Source: Mytilus trossulus (lineage: Eukaryota). From it: DNA of 64,000 bases. Positions 1 through 52,804 of this stretch are shown one piece after another. Location: positions 41,354,001-41,418,000 of the forward strand of contig NC_086379.1 in assembly GCF_036588685.1 (NCBI RefSeq). The letters are read 5' to 3'. Position numbers and translations under genes: made by a program. The notes under the pieces were generated by a model, which was given only the letters and a program-made list of their open reading frames with translations, was not told the DNA's origin and did not search any database. How positions within the stretch are numbered: position 1 is the first letter of the stretch; every line of letters starts with the position of its first letter.

Positions 1-90
1 TTACAATATCTGGTAAAAAGAACGTCGCATTATATGTTTTGACAATAGACATTCTATCATGTGGGGATTTGTTTTTGTTTTTGCTTTTAG

Positions 91-3000
91 AAATAAATAT
101 TCAGACGAGTAAAGACATTTTACTTTATATCCTCGATGAAGTTGAAAAGATTACAAACATACAAAAGATTTCATCATTGGAATGCGAGACCAACATTAAC
201 CAAACAATGCTATCATGCACACGATGTGAAGAAAATCGTTGTCAATCGTAAGTGTTATTTGTTATTAATAATATTAATGAACAATACTCAAAGATACCAG
301 GCTTGGTTGGCTTTATAACTATTTTGATCTGTGTGTCATTGATGAATCTTATCTAGACGAAACGCGAGTCTGACGTATTAAATTATATGCTGGTACCTTT
401 GATAAATATTTAGATAAAATTCGTTTCTTTGATTTGAGAAGTTGTTTTGATATTTTACTAGCCTATGTCGCAAATTTTAAAACTCAATAATGACTCATAT
501 AAACTCAAAATGTGCATCCGTGCAAATTTTTTCCATCATCTTTAATTGAAGGGATTTGGTATGATAAACAAAGTAACAACTATCTCTCAAAGAACCGAGT
601 CACGTGGAAGTAAAGAACTACACATAAAGATCACCGTACGGACTTCCATAATGGATATTGCCCATGCTGTGTAATAGGCAATAAATAAATACCCCCGTTA
701 TAACTTTATGCAAACCAAAAAAAAAACGAAACCGAAAGCACCATCCTGAATTATGCTCATGAGACAATCAAACCAAAAAGAAATAAGACATATGGCACCG
801 ACAACCACGAATGAATGACATGTTTACGACTTCGGTCAGACACATATGAATGTGGCGGGGTTAAATATTTATGCCAGTGCTTAACTATCCCCCTGACGTT
901 AAATGTAGTATATTAGCTCGTCAGTATTCAAAGATAATAAAAATGTTGAATTGATACTCATAATCAATAAATTACTTAAAGGCTCAATAAAAGAACAGAG
1001 GATGAAAGTAAACATTGACGGTATCTTTATAGACGGGCACTATACGAATATAACCTTGAATTTTCGGATTTGATAACCAGTCTATAATAAGTTGTCAGCT
1101 TACTGACATTTTTACTGTCTTGTATCTTTAGATAACAGTTGTCGTCCGATGTGATATTTTACTAATCTGTTAATTTGTTCTTGTCCTGAACATGCATTCG
1201 ATATTTGGACATAAAGCAATCAACAATCACTAATAAAAAAAATTACTTAATCAAAAGAATACTTTTCTATATTCATTTTTCAGCACACCTCCACAAATAC
1301 ACGAACCGATGATTAAAGGATTGTTATATGAAGTAAACAAACCTATTACAAAAGCTGCTAAATTCGGACAGAATGTGGGGCAGTTGGTCAACAATCTAGA
1401 TAGAAAACTTAATTCTTGGTCTGAAGATATCACTTGGAAATTTAATGGATGGTTAAAACAAGCTGAGAAACATGCGAATAATGTTAAAAATGGTATTGTC
1501 GACACTGGTAAAAAAATTAAAACAGGTGCTGAGAATGCTTGTAAAAAAGTTTGGGGTGGAATTAAAAGTAAGATTATGATACGAATTTTAAGATATTATT
1601 ACAATTAGCTATAAACACATTTATCCGCTATTTTGTGCATTTTTCCTTGGATCTTTTTTTTGTGATAATTTTCATATCATGCTTCTCGCTTGAGATGAAA
1701 AAAATATCGCTAGAAACTAAGGAGGCCACGTGGCGTTGCTAACGAAATTGACATTGAAATTGACAACGTCGTCATAGGTAAAATAGCGATAAACAGATTA
1801 TCATTGGTCATCTCAACTCGATTGCCTTTCTCACTTTCGCTGTACCAGCTCAAGCGAGAAGATCAATCTCGTTGAGATAATCAACGATAATCTATAAATA
1901 TAATGAAGCAACGACAACCACTAAAACACAGGTTTCATGCCTGAAATATAAACAATTGCCTTATATTGTTTTTGTCACAAAAATATTACAAAATATGCAA
2001 AAGGTTATATATAAAATAAAAAGATAAATTACTTTGGATGCTCCTATGGTATCTTTCGCCTCATTTTCTTTTCAGTGATTCTCGAGGCCAAAATGTTTCA
2101 AAGTCCAACATTGTTTGATTAAATACAAGTTTCATGACTACTTGAACATTTTTCCAAAACAAATACTTCTTTAATCTCTCCATTAAATGATATATTTACT
2201 TTGAAGTACATGCAGCAATTTGACAACTAAACTATATATTACATTCAGGTATCTTTGGTAAACGGTCATCTAGACATGTGGATAAACGATGTGAACAAGG
2301 TTGTCCGCAATGCGATCGACTCGATACCAAGAGGAATAAACCGGATAAAGTGATACTATCTAGTAAGTAGAACAAAAAAAACAACTGACAGCAACCATAA
2401 ATACTGCTCTTCAAAGATTGCGGTACTTTGTCCCTGCGTACATATGTTTTATCTGCCAAAAACAAGTATCGATAACATTATTTCCTGGCAATTGCAATTC
2501 ATAGTGCCTAGATATATTGCGTTGTGCGATTGCAACACGTTTGCAGTTCTGTCAATAACCGACTTCTTGATTACCTAAAACATGTATGTGTCATATTTGT
2601 AAATATCAAAATTATTACAGAATGCACATATATAGCTTTTAACTATATTTCAGTAGTTAACCAGGAAGCTCTGCATTCAGATATATGACACAAAGCCTAA
2701 TCCATTTACTGTTAAACACGTTATTAGTTCCACTCTATTGAACTTGCAAAATTAGAATGGTTTTTTTTTTACTTCTACATAAATTCATCAAAATTGAATC
2801 GGAGTAATATCAGTGATAAATACATATGTTTATGTAATATGTGTTGGTAGGTTACTTTTTTGAGACATGAAAATGAAATTATCTAGAAATAATTCTCGAT
2901 GCTTGTTTTCAATTGTGTAAATATGTCACAATGATAAAATTGAGAAAGGAAATGGTGAATATGTGAAAGCGAAAACCACCCGACCATAGAGCAGACAACA

Positions 3001-4036
3001 GCCGAAGGCAACCAATGAGTCTTCAATGAAGCGAGAATTCCCGCACCCGTAGGTGTCCTTCAGCTTGCCCCTAAAAATATGCATAACAGTACAGTGATAA
3101 TGGACGTCATACTAAACTCCGAATTATACACAAGAAACTAAAATTTAAAATTTAAAACATATACTTTATTTAACTGTTGATTTTTTTATATGCCAATTAA
3201 TGCGATATTTATTGTTATTATAGTTTGTGGATCCAATTTCGTTTCAAAGCAGAAGAAAATAGCGACAAAATTAAAAGATTTAAGAGCTCTGTACAGTTTC
3301 ATCCTCTCGAAGAACTCGATTGTTTTGATGGTAATTATTTTGTTTTGCCTGCATTTGCCTATCATAATTTGAAGGTTCAATCGTCACTTCTCTTAACAGA
3401 ATACATTTATAAAACATAATTATATTATTATTTTATCTATCATCATTAATCATAATTTCAACATAGTGCAAAACACATAAAAATTCTTCTCCAGACAGTT
3501 TAGTATATATTTCATATACACTCAAATTTTCAGAAAAGTTGGCCGTATTTCAATGAACTTAGAACCGCCAGAAGCATTCATTTTTGGCGTTAATACAAAA
3601 TGTAATCCTGGTATTTGTGACGAGGTTATTTACAACCACTGGGTCGGTGCCACTGCTGGTGGAGTTTTAATTCCCCGATGGTATTATCAGCTCAGTAGTC
3701 AGTACTTCTCTGCTGACATGAATTATCGTTGAGATGCTAATATTTCGAGAATATCATATCTGTTACACCTTTTAAACTTGGATAATCGCTTATTGTTCTT
3801 TTAGTGGTTCGTTATAGAACAGATCAGTATAGATTTTATTGTTTTTCTTTCAGGTGGAGTATGAAAAGAAAAGTGTTCTCTTTACAGGCGGAAAAGTAGA
3901 GTTCAAGACATCATTTGTAACATTTCAAAATGGTAAAAGGAGACAACGATTTAAACTTCCAGGAATGTTTGTTATCTCTGACATTAATGGAATGTCTTTG
4001 AAAATATCACAAGAAGTTTTCAGACGAATGTTTTAA
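91..4036 (+). CDS. Gene A (5'-partial): secreted 8-Cys scaffold / amphipathic-insert precursor, exons 2-6
   Basis: Exons 91-247, 1284-1567, 2249-2362, 3224-3330, 3854-4036, all GT-AG, phases 2/1/1/0, open frame to TAA. Translation includes CETNINQTMLSCTRCEENRC / ...KKVWGGIK-SIFGKRSSRHVDKRCEQGCPQC / ICGSNF / VEYEKKS...FRRMF*. The signal-peptide exon is upstream of the window. AATAAA at 4150-4155. Confidence 0.9.
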
Positions 4037-8894: not shown

Positions 8895-11800
8895 ATGTTT
8901 ATCTCTCTACTCGTAGCAGTAGTCGCAGCACTTTGTTCCTGTAATGGAGAACTACTCTCTCTCCCACAAAATAACTTGGATAGTGAGTGAAACATTTTAA
9001 AATTGATTATTATACATGTAAATTTTATTATATCACGTCTTCTTCAACATTCCATTATGCAGTTCAGTTTATTAGTTTAGGTTACGAGCGTTCTTGGTAG
9101 AGGTTGTTTCAGAAACACGTGTTGTTAACAATGGTTAATGTGTATTAGTTTTTTTTCTAGTTTCTGTTTAGTGTCTTTAATCGATGCGCTAGGAGCCGAC
9201 ACACTGTTTCATTTATGTGTATTTATCCAATTGTACATGTATCTTTTTTTACTATTTATTATATGTACTTTAAAGCTGTTTGTCATAAATTATATGGGAT
9301 AGAGAATATATAAGTGAAATTAGCTAATTATTCTACATGCAAAGTCTGACAAACTGATTTCGTTCATGAAAAATTGCAACAAACGTTTGAATCAACTAAT
9401 GCGGTTTATTTTAATATTAGATGTGGTTTTTGATTTGTAGTCTTAATTGTACAGTCAAATTTAAAAATCACAATAATTAGAATAAAAAGATAAAAACAAA
9501 GGTTAAAAAAATTGGATAGGATATAGAAATTTTTACATTATTATAAATAAGTACAAAATTATAATGAAATGAATTCAATTTTTGCAAATAATTTTAAACA
9601 TAATATGTTTTCAGTAATAAACGACCAAGCACGAGCAGATATTGTAGATTATATCGTTGATGAAATTGATGCTACTGTAGAAGAGGAGAAGGTCCTATCA
9701 CTATCATGTGAAACCAAAGTTAACCAAACAATAAAGTCTTGTGATGAATGTGCCGGAAATATTTGTCCAGCGGTGTAAGTAGAAATGGTTTCATAGACTT
9801 GTATAAGAATATCTTTTTTGGTGCTTTCTTTTTTTTAAATAAGAAAATGTGATATTAATTTTAACTTTGATATATATATATGTTCAAATGTTTAAATATA
9901 GATCTTTATGAACCAAATTTCACGGTTGAAAGTTAGTTTTCTGTGTAGACTTTCAATGATTTACCTTGGATCTAGAAAAAAATTATCCTTTTTTAAGATC
10001 ATCAAACTGACATTGTTGCATTAAGGATAAGTGTGGCTTTCAAATTACTACAAAATCATATGTTGATAAAAAATACCACCAGGATTGGATGTTTCGTCAA
10101 CATATTAGTCAAACATGTTAAATATGATTTAACACAACACGTTAAATGTTTTATCTTAAAAGGCAATACATGAGTCTCTGAATTGGCTTTTTCAGTAATA
10201 GGGTTTCAGATTGAAATATTCATTTTTTAAAACTGAATATCTACGGTTACATATTTCGAAAACCATGCAAAGTTCACATTATTGCTTATTACCCATTATA
10301 TTGTCATTAGAGTATCCAAAATATTACACAAAAAGGACACATTTAACAGTAAATAGGCACATGAAAAAGTATGAGTATTTCTTATTTGAATTGAAGTTGA
10401 AACTATTTGTAATCCTTGTAGAGAACTTAGACAAGAGCGAAAGAAAATAGATTTAAGAAAGTTACTAAGTGTGATCCACAAACCTGTGGTACTTGTAGCA
10501 TCTATCGGTAAAAAAGTAGTAAAGGAAGCTGCTAGGTTTGGAAAGAGGATAGGAAAAGTGGTTAATAGAATTGGTGATAAAGTTAAAAGTACAGTAAAAA
10601 AAGTTAGAGTCGGAATTAAAAAAATCGGATCAAAAATAGGAAGTCATGTTAAAAGATTAGGAAAGGGAGTCGCTAAATTCGGCAAGAATATTGGACGAGG
10701 TGTTGCCAAAATAACCAAGAAGGTGGGACGTGGTATCAAGAAATTTGGACAAGGTGTCAAGAAAACTGGCAAAAAAGTTTGGAAGAAAATTAAAAGTATG
10801 TTATGATATACAGATTAATGTTTTAATTTAACTTATAATTGAATTGTCTGAAAAAAATCCGTTCCTCGTGATGATTAATGAAAATAACTCTTTCAACTTC
10901 ATGAAATGTTAATGAATAATTTGTCTTTCAAATATGTTTACTAACAGGTTTGTAAGTCTCATCAAGCTAGTTTTTCATTTTGTGTCCTTCCATATATTTT
11001 ATTATTAACTATTAATTTAACTTTATATTCAAGTTTTCAATTTGATTTGTCATGTACACTGTTTCTTAATAGCATTTGAAAATTTTGGTTTTCTCCCTTA
11101 CAGAAATATTTGGAAAACGATCAACCAGACACCTAATTGAAAAGCGTTGTGTAAGCAGTTGTCCAGTTTGTGACAAACTTGATAAAGACATATTCACGGA
11201 TGAACAAATAGTTGGAAAAAGTAAGTATAAAGTTAATATCTAGATAAGTTATATATTATATATAATATTATATAGTTTTATAGGTAATGACTCGATGCCC
11301 TTCACAAATGCTTGAAATTAACATTTGGTTAATGTTCGTCATCTTCAATTTTCGTAAATGGTGTCGTAATAACTTAGGTCATTAACCTTCTTGTTTGAAT
11401 TGTTTCTCATTTTTCATGGTGAGTCCTTTAATACTAGTATTCAACTTTACGGTATGGCATGGTCTCGTTGTTGAAGGTCGTAAGCCGTAAATGATCATAT
11501 TCACTTATTTGCATTCTTTTTATGCAATCATACCACATCAGTATATTTTTAAATTGTACTTTGTACCAAAAAAATATTAACAATTTCTTTTTTTTGTTGT
11601 TAAGTTAAAAGGCAATTTTAAGAATGCTATACGCGAAATTTAAATTAAAAATATATTTTCTTTTATAACTGTACATTTTCTGCTTTATTTGCAGTATGTG
11701 GGGCAAGTTTTGTTTCAAGACAGAAACAATTATATGAAAAAGTGAGAGGTTTAGAGGACACATACAACTATATAGTGTCCAATGCACCTGTAGTGACAAA

Positions 11801-12768
11801 GGTAATATTTTTCTTATAAGCCTGCTTATACAAATATGTATAAAGTCTAAGATGATGTGGTTAAAAAATTGTTTTATTGTTCATTTGTAACATAGAGGTT
11901 TTATTTTCCTAATACATGTATCATTTTCTTTTGACAAAATTGAACGTTATGTAAAAAAACAAAACATTATTATGTACTCATAAACAGATAGACAGTAAAC
12001 GTAAAAGATATGGCCACTTAGCGACAAAAAACCCCACAAAAACAGTCTTTTCACAGTGTATTGCATTTGAAATATATTATTCAAACTAAAACCGCACTGA
12101 TGATTAAATAAATCCATTTAAGAATTTAGATGAATTCCGTGTGTATGGTTTGAAATAATTTGCATATTGAATCAATATTATCTACAAAATCATATAAGCA
12201 TTGTAATCCCTTTAAGCTATACAGGCTATATTTTTCAAAGTAATTTGAAAATATAAAAAACTACTTGACTGTATTTTTTATAAGAATTCATACATCACAC
12301 AACAAACTTAAAGGCACTATATTTTGTTTGTTAGAGCTTCTTTGCCATAGATTTTTGAATTGGTGGTGTAACAGATCTATTTCTATTTTTGTGTGTAAAA
12401 ATATAAAAAAGACGCCAATCTACCAATCTAAAAAAGTCATTATAATTGATATTTTGTTGTATAACCATCCAAGAATTAAATACAGGATTTCCGTCCAGCG
12501 TTGAAAGTAAACTTTTTTTTAAAGATTGATCTTCTATAATGTCATTATTTGTAAACTGCTATAACCTGTACTTTATATTTTTCAGGTGGAATATGAAACA
12601 AGTAGTATTATTATAGTCAACGGGAAATTGGCATTTAAAAAGTCCTTTGTAACGTATCAAACGAACAAAATCAAGAGGAGATTTCAGCTTTCTGGACTAT
12701 TTGAAATCTCTAACATAGATGGTATGGCCATCAAAATATCAAAGGATATATTAAAGAAAATGCAATAA
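8895..12768 (+). CDS. Gene B: secreted precursor (342 aa) with a highly cationic amphipathic insert; putative antimicrobial-peptide precursor
   Basis: Exons 8895-8982, 9615-9774, 10422-10795, 11104-11220, 11695-11801, 12586-12768; GT-AG; total 1029 nt in frame. Signal peptide MFISLLVAVVAALCSCNG; CETKVNQTIKSCDECAGNIC; Lys/Gly-rich exon 3; KIFGKRSTRHLIEKRCVSSCPVC; ICG; VEYETSS...KKMQ*. Function is inferred. Confidence 0.92.
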
Positions 12769-14608
12769 AGTTACTGTATAGACCATTTAGTCGATAGAAG
12801 GTTAAATAAAAAGGAAAATGTGCAATTAGTTATGACAAAGTTGTTCAGCAATATTATTGTACTAAGTATATACTTGTTGCGCTTGTTAGTATGTTATATT
12901 TTTCTATCCATTTTTTGTTTTGTTTACTTGTATTTAAAAGTTTATTACGTTTTACCTGCAATAAAGATATATCACATATCGTTTTTTTTTATATCTTGCA
13001 TTTTGAAGATACAATGGATAACTACTAGACTCATTTTCCAGAAGTTTACGTTTTATTTGAAAAATAAAGTCACGACAAGACATTTACATTTACTATAGTA
13101 CAGAACGTAGAAGCCACGAGTTGTTAACCTATGTAAAGTTGTTAACCTATGCTTACATCTGCTGTTTCTTGTGTGCACATTTCCGAAAAAGGATTTTGGG
13201 ATTATGATAAACATGTTTAGTAAAGTCAGGAAAATGATGGACTCTATCAGTAGGTTAAAAGTTAATTTTATGAAGAAAAAAAACCCCAAGAGAATAACAT
13301 ATAGCACAATATTCAGCAATGGACAGAAAAGGTGTATATACCAATAAATAAAGCTCTTAAGTATGTTTAAAACAAGTTTTAAGCAAATTGAAAAAGAGAA
13401 AGAATTATAGATCTGCCATTCATGTGTGTCTACACAAATAACAGTTAATAAAGATAAGAAATGTTAAAAAAAATTTGAAGAATTTTAAAAGTGGACTCTT
13501 ACAAGATTTAAGCCCTTCTTTTCCCATTGGTTTCAGGACGGTCAATTTGATATGTTTTCTTTTATATACTTGTATATTGAATTCCTAGTATTGTAAAAGA
13601 AAAACTAATAATATCATATTTGCCTCTTTGATTTTGTAAGTAATTATACAAATGTCTTCAATGATGTTGTTAATTTGGCGGTAATTTATAGCCAATGATG
13701 GCTCCTGATCAAAATCAGACATCAATAAGACACGTTAAGAGAAAAGTCGGATTTCTATCCTAAATGATTGGTTCGGAATATCCTAACATTGTCTGACGTT
13801 TAGAAACGGACTGAGAGCGGAATTAACGGGAACGCTTCCTTAACAATATTTGATTATTGTAAAAATCAAATAAATTGGTTCGTTCTGTCCACATGCTAGT
13901 AGTTATCAAAGGTACCAGACTTATAATTTGATACGTCTGACGCACGTTTCGTCTACATAAGACTCATCAGTGACGCCTAGATACAAATAGATAAAAAGCT
14001 AAACAAGTATAAAGTTGAATAGCATTGAGGACCCAAAATTCCAAACAAATGTCAAAATTGTGTGCCACACATTGTTGTAAGTATAATGGAATTTTACACG
14101 ACTGTCATGATTAGCTTGCTCTAATAACAGGTCTAATCCACTATTTTCTACATAAGAAGTTGTCTATACCAAGTCAGGAATATGACAGTTGTTATCCATT
14201 CATTTATATGTGTTTAAGCATTCGATTTTGACATTTACTGAGGGATTTTCAGTTTCGATTTTTCCTAGGAGTTCGGTACTTTTTACAGGTTTCCAGCCAC
14301 TAATCTCCAGTAACAAGATTTCAATCCGACGTTTAACAAATTTTTTTCGGAATGTCTGGAAGCCATAAAAAAATCCTGATCTTGGGACTGAGGCTGTTCT
14401 ATCTGAAACGTATTTGACATATAAACACTGAAGGCTAAAGTTTCAAATACATGTATCTCATGTACACAAGTTTGCAATATTCACGATTTTCTTTTATCAT
14501 TGTATCCACTGTCTTGCGAATATACCGAACTATGTACACTCGGTGCTCGGCACATGTATATACTGTAGGGTAATTATACATATGTTTAAAGTATTTCCTA
14601 AGCAAGGC

Positions 14609-18202: not shown

Positions 18203-21200
18203 ATGTTAATTCCTCATATCGTGGCCGTAGTTGCAGCACTTTGTACTTGCAATGGAGAATTACTGGCAATACAACAATATAAATTGGATAGTAAGTTATA
18301 CGAATAGTAAGAAATATAATTTATCTTTAGACCAATTCATTATTGAAATGTTTTACAATATTGTCATACCACGTGTACGTTAACAGTACTCTGAAATATA
18401 TATATTGTACAGTCGACACCATATATCTTAATGTTTATAAACATATATTTGCAATCTAATATCTTATTATTCCAGAAACAAACTAGACGTCTTAACATAA
18501 AAATACATACATAATAATATATAATAAAACAATAAAATCTCAATTATAAGGTTTTTTTTATTCTGAGTTATTTAATTAAAGTATACGTTGCTAACACTTT
18601 TTTACTTGAATGCACTATATGCCATATTTAGAACAGTTACACTAGTACTGTTCTGTACATACATATATTTAAACATCTATATTTACAACTAATTCATTGC
18701 CTTTTTTATGTTGTTACCGACCGGTCAAAATCTATAAAAAAAATTTGAGAAAATATCATTTTTGAAATTAGATTCGTTTATGACAATTGTCAACTATTGA
18801 TTTTGACATACGAAGGCAGTTTATTTATTTTGCTTAATTGAAATTTCTTTAATATATTTACTATTGAACAATAAAAAGAATTTAAACGTCACCTTTATTT
18901 TAGAAACAAGTTCCCGATCGCGAATAGAGTAAAGCAAACCTTACACAAACTTAAGTTTTAATAAGGTTAAGATATTATGAAATTAAAATGAATTGAAATC
19001 TTATATATTTTCAGTAATAAACGTCCAAACAAGCGCAGTTCTGTTTGACTATATCGTTGCTAAAATTAATGACACGGTAGATGAGGAGAAAAATCTTACA
19101 CAATCATGTGACACCAAAGTAAACCAAACTTTAAAGTCATGCGATGAATGTTTACGAAATGGTTGTGAACAGGTGCCAGAGTAGGTAGAAATGATTTCAT
19201 AATTTAACTTAAGAAATTCTTATAATATTGGAATTAAATGCATTATGCTGAACGCTTAATATTACAACACATGTTTAAAAACCTGATTCCTTTGAAGGAC
19301 TTCATAATGGCAATCATCATATTGAGGTTTGTCTCCTATATAGACTTACAACGAAACATCATCATCTTGAATTCAGAAATATGTCAATTTGTAGATAATA
19401 AAAGTATGTTTTTGCCGAATGTAAAGTCTTGAGTTTACTATTCGATGTTTTTAAACTGTTATTTGTTTGTTGGTCGTTTGTCTTAATTTTCCCTGGCGCT
19501 GCCAGTTTCTTTTCGACTAACGGCATCAGTCTTATTTATTTTGTTAACACCTTATCAAGATTTCGTCGAGTCCAAAAAAAGTTATTTAATCATCCTCCTG
19601 TTTAGGTCAAGTGCCGCAAAACTAAAGGTGGAGAAAAAATTTGAAAGTGAACATTACACTGTTGAAAGTTTAAAAGCTCAATTTTTTTTTTCATAAGTCG
19701 AAAAAAATCTTTGTTTGAAGTATAACATGTATTAACGATAGCTTTAAAACGTTTCTTTGAAACTTTTTATGCACAATAAATTGATCATACAATGTCCAGA
19801 TTACTCCAATTATGTTGTGGGTAACTTCCGAATTTATTTGGAGATAATGTGTGTAATACTATAGATCATTATAAAAAAAACCGAATATCAGATGATTTTC
19901 TCAGAATTTATTTATGATTGTGAGCTTTAATTTTTACAGAACACGTTGAAAGTTACATTTACCCATATTTGCATTGTGTAAAAAAATTGAAGTCGAGTGA
20001 AACACATGTCCGTTATTCGCTTGGGTTATAAAATATATGAGACACTCAATAACTTTGAATATTTACCTCTAGCATGGAAAGCTCAGATATGTCTCATAAC
20101 CGAACATAATGTCCGTAATTATTTTTCACGGGAAAACTTGCTTTTGTTAATGAAATCAGATATTTGCACTCATGTGTTTTTAATGTTTTTATTCAAATAT
20201 AACATATGACATAACTTTCGTATAACTTTAGATTTATTTTATAATATTTGTCGTTGGTAACATTTTTAATCTAAATAGAATATCTAGACCTGACTCGGAA
20301 CATTTGCTGAGACCAAACCCAGAAATGTTCCCGCTAATGATCAACACACCTATTCCAGATATAGCTAAATTAATCAAGGAAATTGGTAAAAGAGTTGGAC
20401 ATGAAGCTGCTAGATTTGGAAAGAAAATAGGAAAGGTTTTACAAAAACTAGGTGGAGGAGTCGGACGTACCATAAGAAAGGTTGGAGGAGTTCTAAAAAA
20501 AGTTAGAGGTGGGATTAAGAAAATTGGATCTAAAGTAGGAAGTCATGTTAAAAGATTAGGAAAGGGTGTCGCGAGAGTCGGCAATCATATTGGACAAGGT
20601 GTTGGTAGAATCGGCAAGCATATTGGAAAAAGTGTAGGCAGAATCAGCAAGAATATTGTACGAGGTGTTGGCTCAATCGGAAAAAATATTGGACGAAGGG
20701 TTGGCAGTATCGGAAAGAATATTGGACGAGGCGTTGGCAGAATCGGTAAGAATATTGGACAAGGCGTTGGTAGAATTGGAAAAAATATTGCACGAGGTGT
20801 TGGCAGATTTGGCAAGAATATTGGACGAGGTGTAGGAAGATTGGGCAAGAAAGTTGGACACGGTATTAAGAATACTGGCAAGAAGATTTGGAGTGGATTT
20901 AAAAGTATGTAATAAATAAAAAGATAAATAAGTTAACTAATTCATATTTTCATTAATCGAAATCAAATAATGTAGTTTATATATTTAATCTATAGATTTT
21001 CAAGTAATATTAAATAAGTTCCCACTTTTGAATTCGCCTGTTTTATCATCAAAAATTAATCCTAATTTGCAATACAGGGTTTCAGTCGATTTATTTATTG
21101 TTTTTCTATTATAGTAATTGAATCCCTTGGTTTTTTCCATTGCAGAAATATTTGGAAAACGATCCACACGACATTTAATTGCGAAGCGTTGTTTTCACAG

Positions 21201-23722
21201 TTGTACAGTTTGTGATGAACTTACTAAGAACACTGACGAACAAATAGTTAGAAACAGTAAGTGCATATAGCTTTATTAAACATGTCTATTTTAATATTGA
21301 ATATTAAAAAAAAAACCCGATACCCAAAGAATCGATTTGTATTTCATTGAAAAATGTTATCTTTTATTTTAGCAACAAACGACCATTTAAAGATAGATAA
21401 TGTGTTGTCTGAAGTTTATATATAAGGACATGTAAAGAATACACTCCCCTTTATTTGCAGTATGTGGATCAGATTTTGTTTCAAGACAGCAACACATATT
21501 TGACAAAGTGGGAGGTTTAGAGGACACATACAACTACATTGTTGATCAACCTGTAGTTACAAAGGTAAATGTTTGTTATAGTCTTCAAATCGTGCAAGAA
21601 CGAAACTTTGTTTTTCATACTTTATAGAGTTTTAACATACAGGAAAAACAAATGTTTTCGTTTGTCTATTGATACAAACAAAGTTTTTGCCGATACATGT
21701 ATTACCTTTTTAAAGATGAAATGAGATATTCATATTTATGTTATCACGTTCTGTAACTGACCTGCATTTATTCTGTATAATTGAAATTGTGTACATTACT
21801 TAAAAGGCAACCTAACGACACATAAAAACCCTAAAAGAGAACACATGTTGTGTGTGTATAAACAAATATTTAAAATGCAAAGTTGATCATCATTTCTGTT
21901 AATTATTTAAAATATTATTTTTTTTCAAATTTAAACTGTATGGATTATATTTTCTATAAAAACAAAAATGTTGTGTAGATATAAGGCGGATAGGTTTTCT
22001 TTTGAGTTTGTTATTTCTAAATAAAACTATTAACAATTACTGAATCATTATACAAATGTAGAAATATAAAAATGTAGAAATATAAAAATGTAAAATATAA
22101 GAATGTAGAAATATACAAATGTAGAAATATAAAAATGTAGAAATATAAAAATGTAGAAATATAAAAATGCAGAAATATAAAAATGTAGAAATATGAAAAT
22201 GTAGAAATATGAAAATATAGAAATATAAAAATATAGAAATATAAAATAATATAATTTTTAAATCCATTTGAGTGATGTTGGTTCATCAGCTTTACTATGA
22301 TCAAACTGATAATACAAGAGCTATTCATGTTTATTCAACATATAGGGGAAATTATTACATACAAAACATTAACGGTCTAATTCAACTATTTACAATGCCC
22401 TATATTGAAACTAGTTTTAGAATTTTCACCGATCTTTAATTATTTTTTACCGGGACGTTAAGTTCGTGACAACTAGGTATATTCTCAAATGAAATTGTAT
22501 TATAATAACCTTAATAATGTAGCACAATTATATGAATATTCAAATACTATTCACGGATAAGTAAAAATGGGATGAAAATGGTCCTAACATACGTGTTTAT
22601 CTGATTCATCAAATGTTTCGTTTATGCAAATTTAGTGAGTTTTAATAAACAAAAGAACTATGTTTCGTGAGAGTAGAGCTTTTTTGTTTACCTACGTCCC
22701 CAATGCTAGTTGGTTGAATTATAGTCGCCGTCACGTAAAATTGACACCATGTTTTTTTGTCGAAATTTTCTTAAATATCAACCGCGTTTACTAAAGGTTG
22801 TGCTTTTCAATTAGCGGAAGGAAAATCCTGTCCAAATATCCAATATTTTATTGTGTTTGCACTGTATAATCCTGACCTTCACATAATCCAAGATTCTTTT
22901 GTATGGTGGAATCCGATAATGTTATTACCGGATGTGTTGTCGTGGAGTTCCACGTGCTCTCCATTTACTTGTGTCTCTCGGAGCTTTTCGCCATCCTTAC
23001 GTAAAAAGCGCCGGAAATTGCATCATCAATGACAACAATTTTACCAGAGAGTAACGAATGTTATGGAATAAGGGATCCTCATAGAAACCAAAATGGCGGT
23101 TTTACAATGTAAATAATCTTAAAAAATGTGAATTATAGGATTATACAGTGCAAACACAATAAAAGGTATTACAGTTACTGTAGTGGATATTGGGACAGGT
23201 GTTTTCAGCTAAATGAAAACATTATCTTGAGTAATCGCGGCTGACATTTACATTTTTTTTTCACAAAAAACATGGTGCCAATTTTACGTGACGGCGACTA
23301 TAGTCTCAATAGTTTCAACAGGGCGTTTAATAAACAGTCGTTAAAATATAAATTAAATAACAATCTTTAAATCAAAGATCAACAGACAACAACAGTGTTA
23401 TTGTTGAGTAACCTTCAGGTAATTTTAATATATGATTGCCTTTTTTCATTGGTACCGATTAAAAAAAACACTAATACTGGTTTATAATAATAATGTTAAA
23501 TTGATAAGTACTATTGACTAAACTTTATGCTTTTTATAGGTGGAATATGAAACAAGCAGTCTTATTGTTGCTGGCGGGAAAATGGCATTCAAGAAATCCT
23601 TTGTAACATTTCAAACGGACAAAATTAAGAAACGATTTCAACTATCCGGAATATTTGAATTCTCTAACATAGAAGACATGGCCATAAACATTTCAAAAGA
23701 AATATTAGCTAAAATGCTTTAG
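18203..23722 (+). CDS. Gene C: secreted precursor (425 aa) with an expanded cationic 11-mer-repeat insert; closest paralog of B
   Basis: Exons 18203-18290, 19015-19180, 20279-20904, 21146-21256, 21461-21564, 23540-23722; GT-AG; total 1278 nt in frame. Signal peptide MLIPHIVAVVAALCTCNG; CDTKVNQTLKSCDECLRNGC; NIGRGVGRIGK-type repeats; KIFGKRSTRHLIAKRCFHSCTVC. Confidence 0.92.
20553..20882 (+). repeat. Coding tandem repeat, 33 nt / 11 aa, about 10 units, in gene C exon 3
   Basis: RLGKGVARVGN HIGQGVGRIGK HIGKSVGRISK NIVRGVGSIGK NIGRRVGSIGK NIGRGVGRIGK NIGQGVGRIGK NIARGVGRFGK NIGRGVGRLGK KVGHGIKNTGK. Confidence 0.95.
22054..22245. repeat. 17-bp minisatellite (AAATGTAGAAATATAAA), about 11 copies, in intron 5 of gene C
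   Basis: Directly visible tandem units; explains the spurious ORFs at 22017-22328 and 22037-22267. Confidence 0.9.
22722..23300. mobile_element. Foldback MITE with long TIRs and TA flanks in intron 5 of gene C
   Basis: TAGTCGCCGTCACGTAAAATTGACACCATGTTTTT versus AAAAACATGGTGCCAATTTTACGTGACGGCGACTA. Inverted similarity continues about 160 bp inward (TTTTATTGTGTTTGCACTGTATAATCCT / AGGATTATACAGTGCAAACACAATAAAA). Confidence 0.85.
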
Positions 23723-24948
23723 AGATATCATTTAGACCAATGAGTCAATAAATAGTAATATAAAAATACAAACTGTGCAATAAAATGACAATTTGACTTC
23801 ATCAATACAATTGTGTGTGATATTTTAATATATACTTGTTAAAATTGTAAGTGCGTTATTTTGTTAAATATCATGTTATCTTTAATTGTATTTAAATTTT
23901 TGTTTTACTTTTTACTTAAAATAAAATTCAATTATTTATCGTTGTCTTTTTAAAATATGCTGCATTTTAAAAGAAATTATAAAATACTGATATTTTTCTT
24001 ATCCGCGTTGCAAAAGGTGATGTTTTAAACATTCAATGTATGTATACGATTCATCAGAGATAGACATGTTGTGAAACAATGGTACACAGGAACCTAGTCG
24101 TTTGCGTTTAATGTGATATCGTGTGTACTATTGTTTTTTCTGTTTGTCTTATTTTTTCATGTGTTGTCAGATTATTTTTGATTGTCCCTCTGGTATCGTT
24201 CGCCTCTCTTCTAGAGCTGTTTAGCAATGATTTCTATAGTAATCACTGGTGCTTACTCCGACTTAAAAGCAACAAAGGTAAAGGGATAACTTAGAATATG
24301 AAGCTAGGAATAAAATCCTAATCCACTGATACAAAATGATTTTAACATGAACATTACTCATAAAGGTGTTTGAAAGGTCGGTGACATATTCATTTTTATA
24401 TTTATTTTGAAGAGTACGCATGGCACTTTCCTTCATGAATTTGTTGCGAAGAAATCACTGGTAGATATTTTTTAATACTAAACGTTTCTCATTCCTACGT
24501 TTTATTTTTGGCGGGAATGAAATAAATCACTTTTATTAAGATCAAAACAATAAGAGTCTTAAACTCTTGAACCTGTATTTGATAGATACAAATCTGCTGT
24601 TTAACGTGAAACAAGAATTATTCTTGAAGGTGTGAAATAATTGATTTTTTTGAGAGTTTAAATATTAAGATAATACCATGTTAATATTTGAGAAAACTGA
24701 GGTTGCTGTAGTGACAAAACTAAGTCGGTGACCCCTAATTGTTTTCATCATATTTTGTTTCTTAAATCACGAAATACCTTCACACAGAAAATTTAAGGAA
24801 AAATCACTGGTAGAACTGAACAGACTGTTTGGTCCTTAAATTCACGTTACAATCGATTTCTAATGTCAGTGTCCTCACTTTATAGAAAATTCGCAGTCGA
24901 CATATATATATGATGTCCAGTGTATGACATATGACCACTTCCTCTATA

Positions 24949-25206
24949 GACGAAATAGTTGTGAATGATTTATTGTTGGCAAGTTTTACATTGTCTGAAT
25001 GAAATTTCATAAATAAGGAAATGTTTTAAGGTAAATCATGTCAAAAGTTTTGACAACTTACATGCGTTTGTATACAAATTAACATGTCAAAACAAACGTA
25101 TGTCGTATTTCTGTAAATGTGTAATTTTGAAGGTATATAACACACAGTGCTACAAGTTGTGTATATTAACCTCTAGATTTAAATGACTGTGCAAGCTGTA
25201 ACTTTT
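24949..25206 (+). promoter_or_regulatory. Gene D promoter / 5' UTR (homologous to ~36960-37215 of gene E)
   Basis: TATATAA 25134-25140; colinear similarity with the region upstream of gene E (e.g. AAAAGTTTTGACA, TTTTGAAGGTAT, CCTCTAGATTTAA). Confidence 0.55.
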
Positions 25207-28200
25207 ATGATGACTTCATTCTCAATGTATCTGTTTTGTTTTTGTTTCATCAACTTCTCGTTTACATTAGCTGAAGGAAGATATAAGCGTCAAGCAATAA
25301 ACTTGACGGAACTTGATATAACCAGTGTCAGAAGTAAGTTATGAGATTATTTTTTTTTACAAACTGCATGCACATTTTATCTCTCTGTCTGTTGAGATTT
25401 AACATGATATACAAAATTCTTTAAAAATAATATCATAAAGAAAGAGCACTATTTTAAATATGTTTAAGTAAATATGTTTTTTCATCACCTAGTTTTGCAA
25501 TTTTAAAATTTGATCATGATGATGATGGATGACTTCTGAACGTTCAACTGCAAAGATTTTTTTTGCGGTTAAGATTAAGTATATTTCAAATACTCGTCGA
25601 ATTAAAAATCAGAGTGATTTTTTTTTTATAATGCCAGAAAGGAAGTTAACCACCAGTTGCAACAATTAATTGAAAGTAACAGATAATTAATCTGATTTTT
25701 CTGCTCATAAAACTTGTTTCTTCAATAAATACGCCTTATCATGTACGCTCGAGGTAAAAAAATTGGAGCATTCAAAACCCTAGAACAGATCAGTCCACAT
25801 CGGTTCAAAGGTAAACTTAGACGCATGTCGTTGTTTTATTTTGTATAAGAACAATGGTTATATTTACAAACCGAGTGAATGGTCGTAAATGACACTAAAT
25901 ATACAATATGGCAATCTGCGGTTTGTTTCTATTAATTCTACAATAGGCATTAAACATGTTAAAAGAGGGGCGAAAGATACCAGAGGAACAGTCAAAACTC
26001 ATAAATCGAAAACAAACGGACAACATCATGGCTAAAAATGATAAAATGAGAAACAGACAAATAAAAGTAAACAAGAAACAACATAGAAAACTAAATACTG
26101 AGCAACACGAACCCCACCAAAAACCATTAAAGTTTCTATATTGTACGAAAAATATTAGGAATAGTTAGAATTTTTCTTTCAGATATTGACAAGGAAGCCA
26201 GGAAACAGCTGATGTTCCTGATAGCAGATCGTTTAAATGATACTGTTGTTACACAATCTGATTTGGCTGGAACCTGCCAAAGTAAACTTAACAGTACAAT
26301 AGATGGATGTACTACGTGTAAAGCAGATATATGCGCTAAGTATGTGTATTTTGTATAATAGAAGAATTATTTTAAAACAAAAGTTTTGTAAGAATTAACC
26401 AGAATATTATCTAAATCAACTATATTCAAAGGATACTGTTAGATATATACAAACTTCCCACAATGATATAACGTTCCGTTAAAATAATCTTATAAGCGTA
26501 CTAGTACGCTGAAATTACTAGTAACATATGCCAATTACACATCAGCGGATTAATATGTTGATTCGTTGGTTTTTTCCTAAAAAGTATTGAGAATTCCTTC
26601 GGAACATACATATATGTCAAACTTGGTAAATGAGAGTTGAGAACCAGTCTATTCTTCTTCGCACACGCTATCAAAACCAATAAATAAACTCATCATATAT
26701 TCCAGGATAAAAATTTAAGTATATATGACTGTTCGGTCATGAGATCTTCACTTGGGACTTTATTTTACCTTTTGCAAATTTAAATCCGAGCGTCACTGGG
26801 ATAAATGGAGATGCTCTGTAAGAATACGTAAAATCTCTTTAAAACGTTTTTTTTTGCATTTGAGCGTCACTGGCTATTCTTGTGTTTTTGTCTTATATGT
26901 TCTCCCATCTTTTAGTATTGTAGTCCTGTCATGTTAAGTTGTCGTTTTAATGTTTAATTAAATATTGCCATAAAAGCCAAAGGTTTTGCATGCTACAAAA
27001 CCATGTTCAAACCACCCTTTTTTTCTTGAAATGTCCTGTACCAAGTCAGGAAAATGGCCAGTGTAAATTATAGTTTTGTCTTAGTTCTCCTCTTATATTT
27101 GGTGTTTTTCCCTCAATTTTAATTTCTAACCCGGTTTTTTTTTTTTTCAATCGATTTCTGAATTTCGAACAGCGGTATACTACTGTTGCCTTTATTTGCA
27201 AATTGAATGATTGGTAAAACGGTAAACAATTGTTTTGTACTTGTAATTTTGAGGTAAATTACATAGTAAAGAAGATCGAATTCAAATCAATGTCATTTCT
27301 TTTTTACCTACAACGTTATATATAATAAGTATCTAATATTTGAAATAACAAGTATTTTCTACTTTAACCGTTTTTGCCACATCTGAGGGGGAATTTTGGG
27401 TTCTCAATGCTCTTCAATTTTATACTTGTTTGGCTTTCTAACTGTTTTGATCTGGGCGTCACTCATGAGTCCTTTGTAGACGAAACGCGCGTCTGTAGTA
27501 TTAAATTATACGCATTATACCTTTGATAACTATTGACGGCATTTGTAATAAAAAATAAAATGCATAATTTACTGACAAATATTTATACCGTATAGCAGGT
27601 TATTTTCGCGGGTATTAATTTTTCGCAATTTTCATTGAATAAGGTATACGAAATATTTTGATGGTTGTTATTTTGGCCAATCTTGTATCAATACCTTCGC
27701 TGGTGCATTTTTTAATTGGCGGAATTTATTTTTTTCGATTATGTTCTATCCGCAAAAATAAGCGAAAATAACCATCTTTACGGTACCAGACAATCACTAA
27801 TTTATTACACATCAGGATGTCACATAATAACAATTGAATGTTTACATTAATTTTGTTTCAGTGTAGAAATTCCATCTTTGTCTGAGGAAGTGTTTAATAG
27901 AATTTCAAATGGCAACTACCGTCCGATTACCTATGCCGGGGAGGTTATGAAGGAAATTGCTCAATGGGCAGTTGGAGCTAAAGACTTCTTGGGAGATCGA
28001 ATGGGGCCGTTTCTTAAAAACATAGGAGAAGATCTGCTAGAAGTAGCTAAGGTGCTTGTAAAAGGTGGAAAATATATAGCAACACCTGCAGTTAATGCGT
28101 TCCAAACACTTGGAGGAACAATTGCGAATGCCGGAAGAGAGATAATTCAATCTATTAGTGGTGATGTAAACAATGTCATAGGCGATTTAAAGGGTTTAGT

Positions 28201-31200
28201 TGGAAAGCCTTTCGAAGACTTTGAAAATGCATTGAAAACAGTTCGTCAGACAGTATCAGAAAAGGCACCTGTCGTTTTAAATGCCATCAAAGATGCAGTT
28301 TTACCTGTCTGGGAAAGTAAGATTTATTCAAAAGATATTTAAAGTAGTATCAATCTTTTTAATATATATCTGCGCTAAGTATGTGGATTTTGTCAATAAG
28401 AATAGAATAAGTTATCTAATGTTTCACCAGCCCAGTTACCAACTGTGCTTCGGGACGTCTAAGTGAAACTTGCTGTTATGTAATATTTAAATCTTTGAAA
28501 ATCCAGGAAGTATCTGACTTTGTTTTTTTGGAAACGTTGTTGTATCAGCTATTCGTTGTTCGGTTAAGGTGTTTGCTTTTTAATTATTAGTTAAACATAA
28601 GGGACAATGATCAATAATGCTATCATTACTGAAAATAGACAAGTGCCATCATTAGGGAAAACTAAATGGTATGAATATCAAATTTAAGTCATACAGTTTT
28701 TCTGAATTGACAAGAAACCCCAAGAAACGATGTACTGTTAGAACCGGTTCCATTAGTGAAGTTGGAATTTGCAATAGAGGTCATCGGCAGCTTTGTATGG
28801 CGCTCGTGCTTGTTTTTGTTTCTGTAAAGTATTTGTCTGTTTGCTCTTCTTTTTAAATGATTTTGACATGATGCTGCATCTCTCTTAAGGTTATGTTATT
28901 GATTTCCCTCGATCGTTGATACTAACCGTCGTTTTACACAAACTGACTTTGAAGAAGGGAATGAATACGACGAATTGTATGGTTCTCAGTCTGATAAATG
29001 ACTTTATAATATTTCTGCCTAAAAGATGTGTTATAATTTTACAAACGGCTATGACCTTCATGTGTACCGTTTAGGAACAATGTTTGGCATTTTAGTCTAT
29101 TTTCTATTTAAAGAAATTCCTCCGTTAAAAATATCAAACCCCTTATAGAGAAAAGTACACAGATAATAAAATATCGACCATTTTTTTCAAGACTGTGTTG
29201 TAAGCGACAGGAACATGCAGATCATAAATCAATTGGTTGAATTTTTTCAACATATTATTATAAATAGTAACCAACGATGTTGAATTGTGTCAATCATAGA
29301 TTTAAGTTCAGATATATAACACCATACTTAATTCTATAGAGTAAATAGCCAAATTTTGGCACATGAGTTGACGTATTCTTAACATTTATTACAGAGACAC
29401 TTGGAAAATTGTTCAGGAGAAAACGTTGTGTATCATCTTGTCCGTCTTGTGACAAATTGGATATTAAGAAAAACACAATAAGTCAGATCATCGATTCAGG
29501 TAGGTATTTGGTTATATTAGCCTCCAAGCATAAGGAGAATAGAACTCGTATGAATTCATTTTCAAATAATATTGACTCATTAAAATCTAAAATGCCCCTA
29601 CCATGTCTTTTAGGCAAATTCATAAATCATTAATTGCTATTAGCATTTTGTTAACATGTTTACATTTCCGATACTGAAGGGGTGTCTCTTGAATAAAAAA
29701 AAACTCATCATAGATACCAGGATTTAATTTAGTATATACGCCAGACGCGCGTTTCGTCTACAAAAGACTCATCAGTGACGCTCGAATCCAAAAAAGTTCA
29801 AGAGGCCAAATAAAGTACGAAGTTGAAGAGCATTGAGGACCAAAATTCCGAAAAGTTTTGCAAAATACAGCTAAGGTAATCTATGCCTGAGGTAGAAAAT
29901 CCTTAGTATTTCAAACAATTCATCGTCCTGAATATGCATGAAATATTTCCCACTGGACGTTAAGCAACCAACAATCAATCAAACAATTCAAAAATTTGTA
30001 AACAGTAAATTTATAAAGATAACCATATCAATGACAATTCATGTCAGCACAAAAAGTAAATGGTGTTTAGCATTTCGTAACAAGTATGAAAAAGTTAACC
30101 AGTGTAAAGGAGTATACTTCTGAAGAAGTTTAAGTTTTCCCGTAATAGATGGGACTGCGTCTGGTATATTATGTTCAATTTCGATGAATCAAAAGCTGAA
30201 TATCATAAAATATTTTCCAAGTTCAGTATTTAATAGTATTTAATCAATTTATGATAGTGAAGCTTACATGAAATTTGAATTATAATCAGCAAACAAATAA
30301 CCATCAGATTTATTTCTATCCATTCTAGGGAAGCCTTTATTTATCATAATCAATTCTTCAATATAAAATATGATTTTGTGAACAATTTAGCGATCCTATT
30401 TAATGTTATTTACCTTAGCACTTTTTTTCATAGTTTGTGGTGCAGATACAACAAAACAAAAGAAACAAGCAATGACCGAAATAACATACCTCAAAGACCT
30501 GTACAATAAAACAAAAGACAACGAACAGATAACAAAGGTATGTACCTATAACGTCGTTCATAAATACAATTTGTATTTTACTCAACTTAACTATACAATA
30601 TTACAAACTGAAAAGGCAAAGATTTGATTTGTTTTTTAAGAAGGTTACTTGATTTAAAAGTTTATATATTTTCAACAGCTTTTCATAAACATAAAATGAA
30701 TACTTTGTCGCAAGAGTAACCATACTTGTGCTATTTTCTCCTGTGAAATTATGTCGATCTTGGCTTTAGTCATGACAGTTTTTCCCTGTTCTGTGAATGT
30801 CTTAAGAGTATGAAAGCTTATGTGGAAGTACAGCAACATATTTTAGATTGTACGCCGGAACGATTTCGCATCATCTGTTGAGTACTTAAATATAAAAAAA
30901 GGCTACCTGTTCAAGAACTATTATCATCTTTTAAAACGGCATGAGCTTGAGATGGCACTGTTGTGACGCAGTGTTACTTCTGTTTAATCATACAATAATG
31001 TTATATTACCTCATTTACCAATTAACTAATCGAGATTTAAAATTGGACGAAATGACGTTAGGTTTGTTTTAATGCCATGAACAACCCTTTCGTGAAAATA
31101 CTAGTACTACGAAAATAAGTAAATCCCGCCATGTGTTAAGTAATGACGTTTTACCACGATACATAATTCTTAAAACCAACAAATGAATACATGTCGTTGA

Positions 31201-31513
31201 CCTCTGTCAAGATCTACTTTCAACCTTTGACATTGGAATTAATGCTATGTTAACAATGAATAATAGATAACTTAACGGATACCAACTACAGTATTGTCAT
31301 TTTGTATTTCAGATTGAGTATGATTTGTCTTCAATTGCACTTGATAGTCCAGATAAAATTTATATGGACTCATTTTACACGATCGGAGGATTACAGATGC
31401 AATTGTTTGCCGGTGTCCTAAACATTTCATCACCTGAAGAGACAGGGATGTCAATAGCACAACAGTTTTTCGCTACCGAAATAGCTGATAGACAATCACG
31501 CACGACAGTCTAG
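25207..31513 (+). CDS. Gene D: secreted precursor (~382 aa) with a neutral apolipoprotein-like amphipathic insert
   Basis: Exons 25207-25333 (alternative in-frame ATGs at 25183 and 25210), 26183-26339, 27862-28316, 29395-29499, 30434-30537, 31313-31513; GT-AG; in frame. Hydrophobic leader followed by RYKR; CQSKLNSTIDGCTTCKADIC; TLGKLFRRKRCVSSCPSC; VCG; IEYDLSS...RTTV*. Confidence 0.9.
27586..27785. mobile_element. Small mariner-like MITE (TACCGTA...TACGGTA) in intron 2 of gene D
   Basis: Short terminal inverted repeats with internal TTTTCGC / GCGAAAA repeats. Confidence 0.55.
29700..30055. repeat. Copy of an abundant dispersed repeat (core ACGCCAGACGCGCGTTTCGTCTAC...ACTCATCAGTGACGCTC)
   Basis: The same core recurs at about 340-400 (-), 13910-14040, 16510-16640, 27395-27530 (-), 33260-33510, 38130-38270 and 41765-42210. 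Confidence 0.8.
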
Positions 31514-34699: not shown

Positions 34700-37215
34700 T
34701 ATAACCATATCAATGACAATTCATGTCAGCACAAAAAGTGTTGACTACTGGGATTGTGATACCCTCGGGGAAATAAAACTCCACCAGCAGTGGCATCGAC
34801 CCAGTGGATGTAAATAAACTCATCATAGATACCAAATGATGTTAAGATATGCATCGTTAAGGGCAATCACAATCTCTCTAAGAATTTATGTATTGGTCTC
34901 CATGTTTGGTTCAAAATATGTTTTGCTATGACTCGGACCCTGTTCAGGTCCCGTTAGTTTTATAGAAAAATATTAGGTTTACATGTATAAAAATCCGTTT
35001 AGAGTTGTTTACACTATACACCAAAAAATTACATATAGAATTTAAAAGTTCTTTTTCTCATATTTTTTTTTTTAATAAACTATTTCGAAATTCGTAATGA
35101 CAAAGCCTTTCATAACTACGGAAATGGTTTTTGCACATTACTAGAGGTTCAACAATGACATTTAGTTGCTTACATTAAAAAGAAGATGTGTTACGATTGC
35201 CAATAAAACAATTGTCCATAGGAGACAAAAATGACACAGATTTTAACAATTATAGGTTACCATACGGCCTTTTTCAGTTGCATTTTTATGATTATGATGG
35301 ATAAATGTATCATTTGCAACCAGGACCAATTCCCATTATACTATGTAGAGTTCCGAGATACCCTTTGACTTAACGTTTCGCTTTATATGTTGCCTTCCAG
35401 TTATTAATCCAGACTTCATTGACTACGTATATAAGTTCATTCTTTTAGACTTAAAACAAATCATACTACGTAATATTATAGTACTTTCTAGTTGATGACT
35501 TATACTCGTATTCTATATATTAGCAATTAGGTTTGAGATTGATAAGTTTGAAGACATGTTGAACTCTCATTTATAATACAAGTTAATTATGAGAGCACAT
35601 TCAAGCAGCATATCAAACTTTTGGTATCTTCTAAATACTTTTCTTGTCATGATTGTGATTGTCTTATGTAGAAATCTTTATTTTATAAATAGGAGTAATG
35701 GTGATTTAGAAAAGATGGACTTATTCCTGTGTCTTAACGCTTGGTTTGACATTCTTCAGTATTTTCAACTTTGCGTTGCAACCGAAAAAGAGGAAATACA
35801 AGTACCTAAATATAACAATAGTTTTAGAGTAACAAAATAGTACTGAATATTAAAAGTAGATTTCCAGTACTACAAATTTTAAGCACAGAAATAGTATCTA
35901 TGCAAAAGTAGCAGTGTAGTTACTGTACAGACTACTTATATAAGTCATCTCAGAGTAATTTAAAAAAAAACAAAAAACGTACAATTAAAGAACTTTGTCA
36001 ATATATTTGTGTGAAATGCTTAAAATATTCTTGTTGATCTTGTTTTTTTTTGTTCTATGCTTTTGTTTGCTTTATTGTTTTTTTAACTGTATTTTATGTT
36101 TTACATACAATAAAGATCAGTTATTTACTGTTACAGTAGTCTGTGTTGCATTTTAAAGAAATAAGAAAAATATAGAAAATGAGCTTAGCCGAGTCGCAGT
36201 AGGCAATGTTAAGCTGCGACACTAGAAGGGACATATGATATGACTACTGTTATTAACCTGTACTGGTTCTAGATCCAAAACAACTCTAAAACAAACAATT
36301 TATAAGTAAGAGGATAACCTCCAGTTTTTTGGTGGAGTTCATGTTGCGTAGTCTTTATCTTTCTATGTTGTGTTTGTGTACTATTATTTGCCTGTTTGTT
36401 TTTTGTCATTTTAAGCAATGGTGTTATTAGTTTATTTTCGATTTATGAGTTTGACTGTTCCTCTGGTATCTTTCGCCCCTCTTCTCTGTTTTTTTTTGTT
36501 TGTTCATTAACTGCTGAGATCCCATTTCCCCCCCAATAAAAACGTATTGATGATAGAAAATGTATAGTCCATATAGGCTTTTAAATTTGATTCTATAGTA
36601 AATTTAAAACACTCAAATATACAACATATTCGTTTTTCTTCTCAATTACTATCAAATTTACATACACGATTTGATGACGTAATTATTCTTCCCGCAAATT
36701 TGGAATATTATTATTACTTTTTTGCAACAGGCTGCCACAGTTAGATGTATCTTTTTTTGCTTCTGCTTCTATTCCCTAATAGAATCAGATGTGATGGAGA
36801 ATATACAGAAAGTTATATTTTTTTCTCTTATGAAATACACTTTTAAAGCTATTAGTTTGTCATTACCTTCACCTTCTAGATAATTCTCATACGATCTTTT
36901 CGAAATATATATAGGAGGATGACCCGAATAACTTGTGCACATTTGTTTCCTCGTTAGGGCAATATAATTGTAAATGATTAGTTTTTCGACAATTCATCTT
37001 AAGTTTTACATTGTCTGAAATTTTACAAACAAAAAATTATGTGAAAAGTTTTGACAGCTTATATACATAAGTAAACAACTTATCATGCAACAAAACAACC
37101 GCATGTTTTAATTCTGTGAATGTTCATTAATTTTGAAGGTATAAAACACACAGAGCTTCAAGTTATGTACTTTAGCCTCTAGATTTAAGTGACTGTGCAA
37201 ACTATAACTTTTACG

Positions 37216-52454: not shown

Positions 52455-52804
52455 AGAGAGCCGTGGTGTAGTGGTTAGTGCATCGGACTACTAACACAAA
52501 GGTTCCTGGTTCGATTCCCGTCTGGGATGAAAATTTCAGGAACTCAATTTTCGGCTCTCCCTCGACACCATTTGCGAGTATGGTCTTGAGGAAACGATGA
52601 TAGTCCGTCGGAAGGGGACGATAAATGGCTGACCCGTGTTAAGAGAGAGCCATATCTCTTGCACGTAAAAGACACCCTTGTAGATTTCGAAAAAGAGTAG
52701 GCTAATGCCGCTACAAGGCAGAACTCGCACCCGCAAAGTGGAAAGGGATTAATATAAGTTGCAAAACTTGTTTCCCAATCCACTATAAATAAATATGTTT
52801 AAAC
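52455..52804 (+). mobile_element. tRNA-derived SINE, full length
   Basis: Pol III A box TGGTGTAGTGG (52464-52474) and B box GGTTCGATTCC (52508-52518); TSD TAACCCCGCC (52445-52454, 52805-52814). The central TCGGAAGGGGACGATAAA...CACGTAAAAGACACCC...TTTCGAAAAAGAGTAGG resembles the Deu/Nin SINE core (from memory). Confidence 0.9.

Follow-up and report, generated by a model that had tools for sequence, protein, structure and literature searches.

A long cationic 11/3 repeat in a likely clusterin-like bivalve protein, and its candidate role as a cleavage-generated tail

Clusterin (apolipoprotein J) is called a vertebrate protein in text of the paper on its structure (PMC12527946) and, as far as the account in a 2017 paper goes (PMC5577615), no helical cationic effectors had been reported in Mytilus. 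We analyzed a window of 64 000 nucleotides (nt) of the Mytilus trossulus genome (contig NC_086379.1, positions 41,354,001 to 41,418,000 of the forward strand; coordinates below are counted from its first letter, and all genes lie on its + strand). The window carries seven tandem paralogues, A to G, sharing a six-exon plan. One of them, gene C, has a product that is probably related, at a distance, to clusterin of vertebrates; its exon 3 contains an array of 33-nt units coding for a predicted long cationic helix. We see it as roughly an even bet (probability about 0.5) that cleavage at an F-G-KR site leaves this helix as a tail on a clusterin-like body, for defence at anionic surfaces.

The segment singled out in the first-pass annotation, 20279..20904, is exactly exon 3 of gene C, bounded by AG and GT and running from phase 2 to phase 1. 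It codes for a Pro-rich linker and a cationic amphipathic insert. The initial count of 50 K/R was right; D/E number 6 in the 208 full codons, and reach the 7 initially given when the split codon is included. Tandem Repeats Finder (TRF) reported a period of 33 at 20574-20864 (8.8 copies, 80% matches, score 307). In the register starting at 20556, after HVKR, ten in-frame units (20556..20885; 11-residue consensus IGRGVGRIGKN) and nine more residues make 119 amino acids (aa) with net charge +29, up to F-G-KR. The stretch free of acidic residues, described at first as ∼115 aa, is in fact 169 aa long (45 K/R), with 166 codons in exon 3 (20406..20904) and three residues in exon 4. KR is indeed absent from the last 116 residues of the exon, but an RR is present inside the array (residues 230-231 of P0013, the RefSeq protein XP_063447498.1); it occurs in two of nine B/C sequences, only at the two M. 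trossulus loci.

Amphipathic periodicity is close to a perfect 11/3: the hydrophobic moment of the predicted helix is highest, 0.60, at 98.1 degrees (3.67 residues per turn), a value not reached in any of 200 shuffles (maximum 0.29), and mean hydrophobicity is low, 0.19. Within the unit, Ile/Val occupy positions 1, 5 and 8, Gly positions 2, 4, 6 and 9, and K/R positions 3, 7 and 10, on the opposite face. The proposed 11/3 amphipathic pattern and polycationic character are thus borne out. Units 2-9 share 70-88% DNA identity and none of their 28 pairs is identical, which argues that most of the array is old; codon differences among them are 70 synonymous versus 88 non-synonymous.

Paralogue B (8895..12770; six exons, 342 aa) has a short cationic version of exon 3 (10422..10795; 42 K/R, 5 D/E), with no 33-nt array found by TRF. 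Its insert is 49 aa long, four units plus five residues, versus 119 aa in C, in agreement with the ∼4 and ∼10 copies first estimated. In the exon 3 DNA alignment the main gap, at 20583-20780, is 198 nt or 6 × 33, as an in-frame difference in 33-nt units would give; smaller indels, including 12 and 21 nt, are also present. Growth in C, not loss in B, is favored on parsimony only. B and C are set apart by charge, and C by length. B-type records fall into two length classes, the short one of the window and another with ∼51 extra upstream helical residues (P0015 versus P0016 and P0017), so the insert length of B varies too.

Unit counts, allele lengths and splicing were taken from database protein records. 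Records of gene C have six units in M. californianus and M. coruscus, nine in M. edulis (RefSeq) and ten at both M. trossulus loci. The second of these loci, outside the window (P0006, LOC134726494), is 95% identical to gene C and also has ten units; it may stem from a recent duplication or be a haplotype left uncollapsed in the assembly. The six models on a single contig of M. galloprovincialis have 8, 9, 9, 9, 9 and 10 units, and two fused M. edulis models end after 8 and 9 full units; they would have 10 and 11 if they ended like the others. The 10-unit form of M. galloprovincialis has unit 4 duplicated, so this species reached ten by another route than M. trossulus. Where models on the same contig differ in length by whole 11-aa steps, the best reading is that they represent transcripts from other alleles placed on one assembly; annotation artefacts could also give such differences. 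Within-species polymorphism of unit number is likely on these records. The suggested length variation holds between species, from 6 to 10 units, and is probable between alleles. The idea that slippage tunes length stands as regards in-frame 33-nt expansion; signs of recent slippage are confined, at the protein level, to some records of M. edulis and M. galloprovincialis. Compared with the two six-unit species, M. trossulus shows 80-89% identity in the helix and 66-79% in the scaffold; judging from these comparisons, the Mytilus helix keeps its sequence while its length shifts.

The spliced model of gene C (six exons, all introns GT-AG, 425 aa) matches XP_063447498.1 (LOC134727041, isoform X1). 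The coding sequence of exon 1 (18203..18290; the RefSeq model starts at an in-frame ATG, 18185) specifies an N-terminus judged from sequence to be hydrophobic and signal-peptide-like, and the product is predicted to be secreted. Exon 2 (19015..19180), by the spliced model and structure comparison, codes for a long helix and then the first cysteine cluster, C-x10-C-x2-C-x4-C (C67, C78, C81 and C86 in P0013 numbering); it has three N-glycosylation sequons. Exon 4 (21146..21256) contains IF-G-KR, a short spacer, a second KR and the C-x3-C-x2-C of the second cluster; exon 5 (21461..21564) adds the last cysteine (C338) and a long helix, and exon 6 (23540..23724) beta-strands, a terminal helix (alpha/beta-roll-like) and the stop codon.

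In all five fold searches the top rank went to clusterin, although any one of these results is weak when taken singly. The spacing of the first cysteine cluster is in register with clusterin (PDB 7ZET) and is present in 31 of the 42 family proteins scanned, and a five-cysteine relative, P0097, passes the cut-off of the clusterin family PF01093 (24.6 versus 23.6 bits). Because of these three observations the N- and C-terminal parts of gene C likely form a clusterin-like, disulfide-clamped two-chain body. Gene C itself gave no match to PF01093 at E up to 10; as hhalign ties P0097 to the gene C group (99.7%), gene C is a likely clusterin homologue by transitivity and not a PF01093 member by cut-off. 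The link of the second cluster to clusterin was based on Pfam coordinates and on cysteine spacing. Gene C has 4+4 cysteines, whereas clusterin has five per cluster, forming five interchain disulfides; by analogy the two ends of gene C would be joined by four. A bivalve subgroup with 5+5 cysteines plus an extra pair (P0044, P0096, P0097, P0040 and P0059) stands nearest to vertebrate clusterin and provides the best candidates for an orthologue. A search of PDB sequences with the C-domain profile returned four chance-level rows and no clusterin; in single-sequence searches clusterin was not listed for P0044 and came fifth, at E 5.3, for P0062. All 20 proteins listed have a KR or RR site shortly ahead of the second cluster.

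Searching 1.84 billion representatives with the C-terminal domain profile gave 52 proteins at E ≤ 0.001. We looked up 20 family proteins; a species was given on the representative for 15 and through other cluster members for one more, and all were bivalves (Mytilus, Mizuhopecten, Pecten, Argopecten, Pinctada, Tegillarca, Mercenaria, Mactra, Sinanodonta and Solemya). All family proteins looked up are annotated as uncharacterized or hypothetical. Family inserts measure 37 to about 280 aa, with net charge from −14 to +52. Beyond Mytilus, cationic inserts occur in Argopecten (among them P0071 and P0067; inserts of +16 and +30) and Pinctada (+23; P0050), and these members lie apart from the Mytilus A/B/C clade in the C-domain tree, though some of them form long branches; the tree does not cleanly separate B and C. 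P0071 has a longer repeat, whose period peaks close to 94.7 degrees rather than at the 11/3 value. In the minimal member (P0081/P0034, LOC134726948, outside the window) the insert of ∼37 aa is a short His-containing amphipathic segment with IF-G-KR at its end.

The G-KR amidation signal noted at first pass does exist, as IF-G-KR in exon 4 of gene C; it does not, however, end the reading frame, which continues through the second KR into a 117-aa cysteine-containing domain. In the tethered-tail reading, the secreted product would be held together by an antiparallel disulfide ladder (C67-C338, C78-C322, C81-C319 and C86-C315), by analogy with clusterin. A convertase would cut at FG-KR and IA-KR, the short spacer would be dropped, and Phe302 would become the amidated end of a tail of up to 169 acid-free residues, about 250 Å if fully helical. 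Such a tail is predicted to bind anionic surfaces such as bacterial envelopes; it may be disordered in solution and fold on anionic lipid into a helix whose Ile/Val face is narrow and flanked by Gly, with K/R on the far side. Microbes could thereby be bound, agglutinated or permeabilized in mucosal or haemolymph defence, and exon 3 would act as an exchangeable module varying in length and charge by paralogue.

RefSeq isoform X2 of gene C is without exon 4 (21146-21256), with the reading frame kept; with it go the two terminal KR sites and all but one of the four cysteines of the C-chain. Exon 4 is also absent from models of other paralogues (P0003, P0022 and P0031 are concerned). If real, the skipping may produce an uncut, unclamped form; the alternative is misprediction. 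An in-frame stop follows a few codons past the exon 3 donor in C (20905-20912) and in B (10796-10806), so intron retention would yield a tail without the C-chain.

The choice between tail and free peptide turns on a second, upstream cut of the helix. The 11 family members other than B and C that we examined have neither KR nor RR ahead of the terminal site, hence a tethered tail looks like the family default. In B and C the only common upstream site is HVKR (KR of HVKR-L at 20550..20555 in C). Were both HVKR and F-G-KR cut, the body would be a carrier, and an amidated helix of 119 aa (C) or 49 aa (B) would be released as a membrane-lytic antimicrobial peptide (AMP). We regard this as doubtful: HVKR is followed by L or F, and an aliphatic residue after KR hinders convertases; K/R at unit positions 10-11 belongs to the repeat register anyway; the other 11 members have no such site; and a change from 6 to 10 units would alter the free peptide by 44 residues. 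Some observations nevertheless speak for release. HVKR is present in 9 of 9 B/C sequences (close relatives, not independent) and in no other members, and an aliphatic residue also follows KR at two of the eight F-G-KR sites outside B and C. The charge of +29 and the moment of 0.60 would suit a released peptide as well, the B 49-mer (net +17 to +18 across three B records) has ordinary AMP size, and mussel AMP precursors are described as processed by convertase, CPE and PAM (PMC5577615).

One could also think of a non-immune function like that of clusterin, which makes lipid particles via an amphipathic helix, according to its structure paper (PMC12527946). The tail would then sit on lipoprotein particles, lipid droplets or polyanions (mucins, sulfated glycans, DNA or gamete surfaces), and the protein would be a lipid carrier or extracellular chaperone. 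In favor, the near-neutral paralogues D, E and F have periodicity peaks at 98.1-98.8 degrees, so C shares this 11/3 register rather than having introduced it, and insert profiles match ApoA-IV (E 3.5e-8) and apolipophorin-III (1.5e-6), in composition-driven matches that tape-measure proteins equal in score. Exchangeable apolipoprotein helices, however, are of mixed charge, while the polar face in C is purely cationic, with 0 D/E among the 169 aa; a tandem cluster with fast-diverging inserts is also, we infer, typical of defence genes. We therefore hold this function to be improbable. Far less credible is the view that the array arose as an artefact of assembly or by neutral slippage in a linker that the protein could do without. 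Unit counts do come from database records rather than reads, and unit number varies widely with no obvious constraint; against this, the diverged units have kept frame, records from five Mytilus species contain the array, and conservation of the helix exceeds that of the scaffold. The tethered tail remains the reading that we prefer.

In the rest of the window, paralogue boundaries are approximate, as they were checked for B and C only. Paralogue A (60..4036), whose 5′ end lies outside the window, has a short mildly cationic insert. D (25183..31513) and E (37211..42508) both have a near-neutral 11/3 insert and an RRKR site; F (43533..50391) has a Gly-rich, slightly acidic 11/3 insert and G (57221..62735) a neutral one, each with a terminal F-G-KR. 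Two inverted copies of an element of ∼345 nt, ∼95% identical and with a tRNA-like head (52455-52800, + strand; 59615-59945, − strand), likely represent a short interspersed nuclear element; ARAGORN called no tRNA. By TRF, intron 1 of paralogue F also holds 20 copies of a 35-nt minisatellite; there are 25/26-nt arrays as well, and four copies of a 258-nt satellite lie between F and G; minisatellite and satellite arrays lie at 46513-47219, 51996-52321, 53464-54515 and 56017-56151.

The same scaffold extends across Mytilus, scallops, ark shells, pearl oyster, clams, a freshwater mussel and Solemya. We tentatively suggest, as a possibility short of an even chance, that an expanded, unannotated bivalve clusterin family serves as a display platform, an exchangeable exon-3 tail on a clamped body. 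In mussels, and it seems independently in scallops and pearl oyster, this tail would have become a giant cationic membrane-active helix, its length set by a number of 33-nt units that varies among species and alleles. If true, clusterin would predate vertebrates, and its ancestral function would be surface binding via a cleavage-generated tail. Natural insert variants in the family could be used for testing the roles of body and tail and the age of clusterin. For mussel immunity the family would be a source of candidate helical cationic effectors, and the series of 4, 6 and 8-10 units is a ready experiment on helix length versus membrane binding.

Several matches were set aside. Exon 3 matched Chlorosome_CsmC above its cut-off (29.7 bits), as well as Collagen_mid and suprabasin, through its Gly/Lys composition, and tape-measure, haemagglutinin and designed-bundle matches to full-length profiles are also composition effects. 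The barrel fold of tubular lipid-binding (TULIP) proteins had a feature score of 0.82, lead level, and was not among the matches listed in fold searches. Of the exchangeable apolipoprotein families in Pfam (PF01442, PF07464), exon 3 of B gave ApoLp-III at 15.6 versus 36.3 bits and exon 3 of C none. The literature searched, with supplements and subscription journals outside its scope, yielded no description of the gene C family or its accessions, in searches of which some had low specificity. Clusterin-like precursors of invertebrates, mainly echinoderms, reportedly carry defence peptides (‘protoclusterins’); a search of the term gave only an unrelated paper, and the clusterin link of the scaffold may already be in print. 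Two mentions of ‘clusterin’ (PMC9892467, PMC7472309) were unrelated, so far as their passages on it go.

Compared with linear amidated AMPs of pleurocidin, piscidin or cecropin type, gene C has a similar Gly/Lys/Ile-rich amphipathic helix with an X-G-KR end; its helix is, however, three to five times longer and strictly periodic, and is predicted to lie within a disulfide-clamped precursor. With the 11/3 lipid-surface helices of alpha-synuclein, perilipins and apolipoproteins A-I/A-IV it shares the 3.67-residue period over >100 residues and low mean hydrophobicity, a likeness without demonstrated sequence homology; in contrast to them, gene C has no acidic residues in its helix, and its cationic residues lie opposite the hydrophobic face. 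The myticalins of Mytilus are likewise described as secreted precursors whose cationic region is cut at a dibasic site and often amidated; they are Pro/Arg-rich, with no predicted secondary structure, three exons and an anionic C-terminal extension, and the description itself mentions no cysteine scaffold of the gene C kind (PMC5577615). The closest likeness is to vertebrate clusterin (PF01093; PDB 7ZET and 7ZEU; partly as described in PMC12527946). Both are secreted-type precursors with N-glycan sequons and have two cysteine clusters on either side of a central basic site, in gene C a candidate for cleavage, the first cluster with the same C-x10-C-x2-C-x4-C spacing. Clusterin folds as a discontinuous coiled coil with disulfides and an alpha/beta roll; for gene C long antiparallel helices and a C-terminal three-strand sheet with a helix are predicted, and an amphipathic segment adjoins the basic site. 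Gene C differs in having four cysteine pairs versus five, with 9-17% identity in structural alignments. At its center, where clusterin has helices 4-7 and short hydrophobic tails, stands a cationic 11/3 repeat rich in Gly and variable in length; gene C also carries a G-KR amidation signal and belongs to a multi-gene tandem cluster.
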